Part shown: positions 5,839 through 6,112 of the stretch, in pieces
Numbering within the stretch: position 1 is the stretch's first letter
Layout: each line of letters opens with the position of its first letter
Assembly (NCBI RefSeq): GCF_058153355.1
Contig: NZ_CM177019.1
Length of the DNA: 64,000 nt
Strand: one strand, 5' to 3'
Notes under the pieces: generated by a model
Databases searched by the model: none
The model's input: only the letters and a program-made list of their open reading frames with translations
What the model was told of the DNA's origin: nothing
Program-made: the position numbers and the translations under genes

Positions 5839-6112
5839 GCCGGATAAGACGCGCAAATCGTCGCATCAGGCGTTGATTGCCGGATGCGGCGTGAACGCCT
5901 TATCCAGCCTACGGTCAGCAACGGTTGTAGGCCTAATAAGACGCGCAAGCGTCGCATCAGGCATCGTGCACCGATTGCCGGATGCGGCGTGAACGCGTTA
6001 TCCGGCCTACGTTCGGCAACGGCTGTAGGCCTGATAAGACGCGCAAGCGTCGCATCAGGCGCTCATTGTCGGATGCGGCGTGAACGCCTTATCCGACCTA
6101 CAGTCAGCAACG
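5839..6112. repeat. cluster of REP/BIME palindromic units in the aceA-aceK intergenic region
   Basis: Three tandem copies of gccggataagacgcgcaagcgtcgcatcaggc / tgccggatgcggcgtgaacgccttatccggcctac-type palindromic units read directly. Confidence 0.85.

Follow-up and report, generated by a model that had tools for sequence, protein, structure and literature searches.

Introduction

What does a block of palindromic repeats do between two genes of the same operon, and can it account for the unequal expression of these genes? The aceBAK operon raises this question in a 64,000-nucleotide stretch of an Escherichia coli chromosome (NCBI RefSeq assembly GCF_058153355.1, contig NZ_CM177019.1), which we refer to as the window. 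That E. coli genomes contain BIME-2 arrays, which differ in copy number between strains and bind gyrase, is textbook knowledge, and the 1988 sequencing of the operon reportedly already revealed REPs between aceA and aceK. The element is already known in kind and place and is ordinary; our literature search for REP together with aceK found nothing specific. A preliminary description, made from the letters of the window alone, had proposed that the REP stem-loops between aceA and aceK shape mRNA stability and polarity and thereby set the large AceA:AceK expression ratio. The BL21 transcriptome paper gives a product ratio of 0.3:1:0.003, citing Chung et al. 1993.

Layout of the aceA-aceK spacer

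Searches with NCBIfam equivalog models located aceK, aceA and aceB on the minus strand, with metA beyond aceB. The gene bounds leave a spacer of 313 bp between aceA and aceK, in agreement with the size given in the preliminary description. The REP array (5839-6101) takes up 263 of the 313 bp. It lies between the aceA stop and the aceK start and is entirely extragenic. It had been described as three near-identical palindromic units; there are indeed three BIME units, but more exactly the array consists of six REPs in alternating orientation. The features are as follows, with the spacer read in the direction of transcription.

4074-5810, minus strand: aceK (NCBIfam equivalog model)
6124-7443, minus strand: aceA (NCBIfam equivalog model)
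7458-9077, minus strand: aceB (NCBIfam equivalog model)
5811-6123, transcribed on the minus strand: aceA-aceK spacer, 313 bp
6102-6123, minus strand: 22-nt leader from the aceA stop codon (6124-6126) to the first REP, carrying a small GCAAC/GUUGC hairpin
6067-6101, minus strand: REP 1, Y type, GTAG head on the mRNA strand, hairpin dG -18.8 kcal/mol
Between REP 1 and REP 2: 5-nt linker
6025-6061, minus strand: REP 2, inverted Z2 with CTAC tail, dG -21.7 kcal/mol
REP 1 and REP 2: BIME unit 1, Rfam naRNA4 match of 85.3 bits
Directly before REP 3: 14-nt tail-to-tail linker AGCCGTTGCCGAAC
5976-6010, minus strand: REP 3, Y type, dG -15.9 kcal/mol
Between REP 3 and REP 4: 12-nt linker, identical to the K-12 linker
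5927-5963, minus strand: REP 4, inverted Z2, dG -19.2 kcal/mol
REP 3 and REP 4: BIME unit 2, naRNA4 match of 80.6 bits
Directly before REP 5: 14-nt linker AACCGTTGCTGACC
5878-5912, minus strand: REP 5, Y type, dG -18.7 kcal/mol
Between REP 5 and REP 6: 5-nt linker
5839-5872, minus strand: REP 6, truncated or hybrid Z2 ending in CTTATCCGGC, without CTAC tail, dG -12.3 kcal/mol
REP 5 and REP 6: BIME unit 3, naRNA4 match of 61.6 bits
5811-5838, minus strand: 28-nt aceK leader ATTCACTGCTCCTGATGAGGGCAACAA, with a GAGGG Shine-Dalgarno sequence 6 nt before the ATG

The truncated Z2 is the aceK-proximal REP of the array. A repeat search recovered periods of 98 and 91 bp within the array. Tandem Repeats Finder reported no repeat in the array, probably because the linkers within the units differ in length (5 versus 12 nt). 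The repeat search detected no inverted repeats in the array at a seed of 8, since the REP stems are short and interrupted; the stems are visible by folding.

Two open reading frames on the plus strand, 5780-5992 and 5884-6822, start in the array according to the mechanical list of reading frames, and the longer one is antisense to aceA. They had been called spurious beforehand, most likely correctly: neither has a Pfam match, and both are unannotated in a RefSeq genome that is 99.8% identical over the stretch. For annotation, this means that the two reading frames should not be called genes.

The distance between the aceA stop codon and the array bears on a possible effect on translation, in which the first REP would stall ribosomes at the stop codon and lower AceA synthesis. 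A REP is reported to cut translation of the upstream gene when fewer than 16 nt separate it from the stop codon, but the GTAG of the first REP lies 22 nt and its stem 26 nt past the aceA stop, outside the reported range. Moreover, no product of the operon is more abundant than AceA, and we find such stalling scarcely credible. The class of REP translational down-regulators, defined by a REP at most 15 nt from the stop codon, was rejected at the spacing found.

Assignment of the array to the BIME-2 family

The element in the aceA-aceK spacer is a BIME-2 array of three tandem units, each with a Y REP and an inverted Z2 REP. In BIME-2 elements, Y and Z2 REPs alternate in orientation, are joined by short linkers and are repeated in tandem, and their copies at a locus vary among strains (PMC3333891). 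The array matched the Y consensus three times (5879-5912, 5977-6010 and 6068-6101) with one or two mismatches and the full Z2 consensus twice (5927-5962 and 6025-6060) with no or one mismatch, where 100 shuffles gave an expectation of 0.00 by chance for either. Its composition is that of a BIME-2, with three Y, two full Z2 and one truncated Z2. The same holds for its arrangement: the REPs alternate in orientation over three units, with head-to-head linkers of 5, 12 and 5 nt and tail-to-tail linkers of 14 and 14 nt. The GTAG/CTAC tetranucleotide is found in five of the six REPs, the sixth copy having no tail, and each of the six forms a hairpin interrupted by an internal loop of 1-3 nt, as is characteristic of REP palindromes. 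The repeat is also a high-copy one, as the query of the spacer and its flanks found a median of at least 33 matching places per E. coli genome.

We also considered BIME-1, a single pair of Y and Z1 with a long L linker containing an IHF site. This class was ruled out because the Z1 consensus gave no best match in the array and there is no long IHF-binding linker; the array is tandem, and its linkers span 5-14 nt.

The Rfam family RF02564 (naRNA4) matched the three units on the minus strand at 85.3, 80.6 and 61.6 bits against a gathering threshold of 59.5, while plus-strand scores stayed under the threshold. Together with the consensus matches, these three matches bear out the REP/BIME identity proposed at the outset. 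As the Rfam model essentially describes any BIME-2 unit of one Y and one Z2, a match shows the sequence family and not the function. It is conceivable that the units are processed into naRNA4-like small RNAs that bind HU and act on nucleoid structure: all three score above the gathering threshold on the transcribed strand, and condensation of DNA with HU is reported to depend on a two-hairpin Y+Z2 RNA rather than on a specific sequence (PMC4550694). However, no discrete processed RNAs were found for the aceA-aceK locus and aceBAK is repressed under most conditions, which makes this fate of the units very unlikely.

RNA folding and 3' ends at the array

Stable stem-loops had been expected on the mRNA, and the folding check of the spacer found them. 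The spacer RNA of the transcribed strand folds at -150.5 kcal/mol compared with -110 for dinucleotide shuffles (z -7.4), and individual REP hairpins reach -12 to -22 kcal/mol. The opposite strand folds equally well, as is expected of palindromes.

The REPs are not intrinsic terminators, because no U tract follows any of them. The spacer as a whole was rejected as an intrinsic terminator in E. coli for the same reason. The terminator scan gave no terminator-like site on the minus strand of the spacer, and the sole minus-strand site lies inside aceK (5472-5441).

An RNA 3' terminus maps to the array in K-12. TRS Supplementary Data 2, a re-analysis of 3'-end data, places a terminus at 4218573, annotated to aceA and significant in two of three replicates. 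With the end of aceA at 4218413, this terminus corresponds to spacer nt 160, which is 5 nt past the last REP (spacer nt 121-155). Dar and Sorek 2018 (PMC6061677) demonstrated genome-wide that, when transcripts end further downstream, PNPase and RNase II shorten them until they reach a stable stem-loop that has no U tract; REPs are among these stem-loops. The K-12 terminus is located where such an exonuclease-trimmed end is expected, and a role of the array at the RNA level is plausible.

A terminator-like element inside aceK

The scan for terminators directed attention to the beginning of aceK, where two overlapping features were located.

5441-5472, minus strand: terminator-like hairpin CCGCUCG(8)CGAGCGG followed by CUUUUUAUCU, aceK nt 339-370 (terminator scan)
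5441-5527, minus strand: equivalent of the sRNA AceK-int, ending at the aceK-internal hairpin

The hairpin and its U tract are identical in K-12, where AceK-int covers aceK nt 284-368 and has its 3' end exactly at this hairpin. The AceK-int end corresponds to the K-12 terminus at 4218963 (TRS Supplementary Data 2), and the TRS signal is 0.98 at this end versus 0.64 after the REPs. An RNase E site has been reported at the 5' end of AceK-int, and its 3' terminus has been reported to be conserved in Klebsiella, Salmonella, ETEC and Shigella. We found the hairpin with a T-rich tail retained in 51 of 79 Enterobacterales species. In Lelliottia and Enterobacter quasihormaechei (L028, L038), the innermost pair is changed from G-C to A-U by two synonymous substitutions, TCG/CCC to TCA/CCT, which are compensatory. 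Premature termination within aceK is described in the BL21 transcriptome paper. Given the conserved terminator-like site inside aceK, the step down from AceA to AceK should not be credited to the REPs alone. Chung and co-workers are said to have ascribed the downshift in 1993 to inefficient aceK translation together with premature termination.

Copy number and alleles of the array

We searched 5,426 complete E. coli genomes with a 913-bp query, consisting of the spacer and 300 bp on each side, and then read representative alleles. Shares of allele sizes refer to an evenly spaced sample of 40 genomes and not to a full census. The site holds 0, 1, 2, 3 (K-12), 4, 5 or 6 REPs in E. coli, in line with the earlier statement that the number of units varies among strains. 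The alleles read were the following.

48 bp: no REP, a plain hairpin instead
85 bp: Y
124 bp: Y-Z2', where Z2' is a truncated Z2
182/183 bp: Y-Z2-Y, the K-12 allele
215 bp: Y-Z2-Y-Z2'
280 bp: five REPs, about half of the evenly spaced sample
313 bp: six REPs, the window

Further spacers span 211, 223, 228 and 306 bp. The exact 313-bp allele with six REPs was present in 14 of the 5,426 genomes. The REP-free 48-bp allele was found in 718 of them (13%), concordant with 5 of 39 in the sample. The array of the window is a mosaic: the middle unit shares its 12-nt linker with K-12, and the two outer units share their 5-nt linker with the 215- and 124-bp alleles. The differences in copy number, with six REPs in the window, three in K-12 and zero to six across E. 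coli, most likely reflect expansion and contraction of a repeat under what would be near-neutral conditions.

Two other arrays were noted during the comparison. The 306-bp allele of E. coli Nissle 1917 (NZ_CP007799.1, 5119858-5120763) gave a single alignment with the 313-bp allele, at an identity of only 94.3%, and thus a second, diverged allele of six-REP size exists. Escherichia albertii NBRC 107761 (L011) has a 542-bp spacer upstream of position 2501 with 11 REPs (six GTAGG heads and five CTAC/CAAC tails), the largest array seen at the aceA-aceK site.

The REP-free 48-bp allele, for example at 401-448 of L009 (E. coli strain 729_xx_1_3_yolk), is of unrelated sequence and combines a hairpin of -19 kcal/mol with a stronger aceK Shine-Dalgarno sequence, AAGGAG. 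The last REP might occlude the ribosome-binding site of aceK; the predicted probability that the Shine-Dalgarno sequence of aceK is unpaired was 0.14-0.40 for the window, varying with the context folded. Over the REP-bearing alleles it was 0.03-0.44, depending on the upstream length folded, and for the REP-free allele 0.60-0.65. That REP-free strains make relatively more AceK is a prediction and not evidence. The natural series of zero to six REPs, with 13% of the genomes free of REPs, offers a ready-made experiment on the function of intercistronic REPs.

Stem-loops at the junction in other Enterobacterales

We fetched the locus from 79 other Enterobacterales species and calculated hairpin statistics for the 75 spacers of 20-170 nt. 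Every one of the 75 contained a hairpin of -11.6 kcal/mol or better, and 73 contained one of -15 or better. The median was -26.4 kcal/mol, with a median z of -2.7 against dinucleotide shuffles. These hairpins are built from unrelated sequences in different genera. Pectobacterium, Samsonia and Buttiauxella have plain GC hairpins, Enterobacter, Klebsiella and Raoultella have CCCTCTCCC/GGGAGAGGG repeats, Salmonella and Citrobacter have other REP types, and Shimwellia and Hafnia have a hairpin followed by a T run. The turnover of the sequence with retention of the structure suggests that a stem-loop at the aceA-aceK position is useful. Conservation of the hairpin, scored for this one junction, could instead come from palindromes tending in general to settle behind highly expressed genes, without selection at the aceA-aceK position.

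Loci from Enterobacter, Yokenella, Raoultella, Pluralibacter and Klebsiella (L025, L026, L027, L029, L030, L038 and L039) showed a different palindromic family, TTTCCCCCTCTCCCC...GGGGAGAGGG...GGGTGAGGGGGAA, the 3' arm of which overlaps the aceK ribosome-binding site.

The hairpin is not indispensable, as one locus has no spacer at all. In L018, labelled Edwardsiella ictaluri ATCC 33202, aceA is extended by eight codons around position 2501 and its TGA overlaps the ATG of aceK (TGATG). The AceK encoded by this locus is 89% identical to E. coli AceK, which seems high for Edwardsiella, and the contig may be mislabelled or contaminated.

Gyrase cleavage and repeat turnover

The K-12 copy of the array has also been mapped at the DNA level, where gyrase cleaves it strongly in vivo. 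In the Topo-seq data of Sutormin et al. 2019 (Table DS3), the 131-bp BIME-2 between aceA and aceK of K-12 carries eight gyrase cleavage sites with ciprofloxacin (Cfx), two with rifampicin plus ciprofloxacin (RifCfx), none with microcin (Micro) and two with oxolinic acid (Oxo). Most BIME-2 rows in this table have no cleavage site, and aceA-aceK is among the highest of the BIME-2 rows read. According to the same study, gyrase prefers Y REPs, and BIME-2 signals are independent of transcription, persisting or rising with rifampicin. The allele in the window has three Y REPs versus two in K-12. By analogy with the K-12 copy, a role as a gyrase site would be a point missing from the preliminary description.

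One could go further and regard the element as mainly a DNA element, either a nucleoid organiser or a strong site for gyrase, which would remove the positive supercoils that arise downstream of the heavily transcribed aceBA genes, with any effect on the RNA being incidental. The cleavage sites of the K-12 copy (eight Cfx, two RifCfx and two Oxo), the preference of gyrase for Y REPs and signals that hold or rise under rifampicin argue for this possibility. Yet other genera fill the junction with plain hairpins or with repeat families not known as gyrase sites, and 13% of the E. coli genomes have no BIME there. We therefore regard a mainly DNA-level function as fairly unlikely, although DNA and RNA roles are compatible with each other.

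A selfish or neutral repeat without host function at this locus is a further explanation, in which the size of the array changes through RAYT/TnpA-REP activity, slippage or unequal recombination. It would fit the wide allelic series at a single site (48-313 bp in E. coli and 542 bp in E. albertii) and the mosaic units with 5-nt and 12-nt linkers in one array. Furthermore, TnpA-REP cleaves and recombines BIMEs in vitro, and the BIME number per locus varies among strains (PMC3333891). Complete absence of function is nonetheless improbable, since some hairpin is kept in all 75 spacers even where REPs are missing and since the K-12 element has both a mapped RNA 3' end and sites cut by gyrase.

Other features of the window

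On the other side of aceK, a reading frame of 728 amino acids (1919-4105, plus strand) without an NCBIfam match runs towards aceK, and the two share 32 bp at the aceK 3' end. The annotation of the locus L002 gives a ShET2/EspL2 family effector gene at this position. In R32_14_1F, the strain closest across the spacer (comparison of the window with L001), iclR directly follows a slightly shorter aceK. The gene of 728 amino acids is thus variably present. The window also contains two complete rRNA operons.

11381-16476, minus strand: complete rRNA operon
53197-58378, minus strand: complete rRNA operon, with 16S and 23S Rfam scores identical to those of the first

Each has a tRNA and a StyR-44 match in its 16S-23S spacer according to Rfam. 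Other Rfam matches are a TPP riboswitch (28319-28419), a cobalamin riboswitch (61463-61652), a cluster of four tRNAs (47853-48291) and P26 (42688-42749). The rRNA operons, riboswitches, tRNAs and P26 are ordinary for this part of the E. coli chromosome.

Discussion

We return to the question of whether the array sets the AceA:AceK ratio. On balance, we lean towards a model in which the REP block acts as an exonuclease barrier for the aceBA message, AceK is kept low through aceK itself, and the same DNA serves as a gyrase site. Most aceBAK transcripts would stop or be cut soon after entering aceK. The stopping point would be the terminator-like hairpin at aceK nt 339-370, with a cut possible at the RNase E site reported for the 5' end of AceK-int. 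From there, 3'-to-5' exonucleases would presumably trim back to the REP stem-loops, leaving a stable aceBA message with its 3' end just past the last REP. With such a stable message, the REPs would contribute to the high levels of AceB and AceA relative to AceK, by an amount that we can only infer. The low level of AceK itself would come mainly from weak translation of aceK and early termination inside it. At the DNA level, the same array would be a preferred site of gyrase binding and cleavage.

A single stem-loop is probably enough for the role at the RNA level, so that six copies instead of three would probably be of little consequence to the RNA. Rather than setting the AceA:AceK ratio by itself, the array probably helps to keep the upstream message from being degraded.

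The proposal in the preliminary description was stronger. It took the REP stem-loops as the main cause of the about 300-fold difference between AceA and AceK, through stability and polarity, with copy number tuning the ratio. Stable stem-loops on the mRNA strand, a K-12 3' terminus right past the last REP and a junction hairpin in nearly all Enterobacterales are all consistent with it. However, a separate terminator-like element inside aceK marks the stronger terminus (TRS 0.98 versus 0.64), the BL21 paper reports premature termination within aceK, and natural REP numbers run from zero to six, with 718 of 5,426 E. coli genomes having none. In this strong form, the proposal appears quite doubtful. 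Its general part held up, as the K-12 3' end and the hairpins in 75 of 75 spacers make a role in the RNA plausible; the claim that the REPs set the ratio was not supported as stated, in view of the aceK-internal terminator, the termination in BL21 and the 13% of REP-free genomes.

A more far-reaching idea is that the aceA-aceK junction is a two-part step-down module conserved in Enterobacterales. It would combine an interchangeable stem-loop (a plain hairpin, a REP of any family or a terminator) with the terminator in aceK, which is kept at synonymous sites. The series of zero to six REPs (11 in E. albertii) and the linked change in the Shine-Dalgarno sequence (GAGGG versus AAGGAG in the REP-free allele) would tune the dosage of AceK by lineage and might tune local gyrase activity. 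We offer this only as a speculative and rather unlikely extension; if it were true, AceK dosage would set the isocitrate branch point differently in each lineage.

Comparison with known systems

The closest known counterpart is the K-12 cluster itself, listed as BIME-2 at aceA>-aceK> (Sutormin et al. 2019, Table DS3). Both share the locus, the flanks, the Y and Z2 types, the 22-nt leader and the 14-nt tail-to-tail linker. They differ in that K-12 has three REPs (Y-Z2-Y) in a 182-bp spacer, whereas the window has six (Y-Z2 three times, the last Z2 truncated) in 313 bp and combines the 12-nt linker of K-12 with the 5-nt linker of other strains. In addition, the last 28 nt before aceK end in GGGCAACAA in the window and in GGGCGCTAA in K-12. 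The BIME-2 family at large (Gilson, Bachellier and Hofnung; PMC3333891) agrees with the window in alternating Y and Z2 REPs, short linkers, tandem repetition, an extragenic and transcribed location and strain-variable copy number. Nothing substantive sets the array apart from this family except its heterogeneous linkers and truncated terminal Z2.

REP325, the source of naRNA4 between yjdM and yjdN with six Y+Z2 units (PMC4550694), has the same unit architecture, as reflected by the RF02564 scores of 62-85 bits. It is, however, another locus, and only RNA from REP325 has been shown to act on the nucleoid through HU.

For the RNA level, the intercistronic REP stabiliser between malE and malF is a parallel (Newbury et al. 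1987, via PMC6061677). The malE-malF REPs likewise lie between cistrons of which the upstream one is expressed far above the downstream ones, and deletion in malEFG established the REP as a barrier to 3'-to-5' exonucleases. Unlike malEFG, aceBAK has an extra terminator inside aceK, and the barrier role would be assigned to aceBAK by analogy. The 3' ends described by Dar and Sorek 2018 (PMC6061677) resemble the K-12 terminus in that a stable stem-loop without a U tract has a precise 3' end immediately downstream. There, the original termination is Rho-dependent and takes place at gene ends, whereas at aceBAK an intrinsic-like stop inside the next cistron would provide the transcripts to be trimmed.
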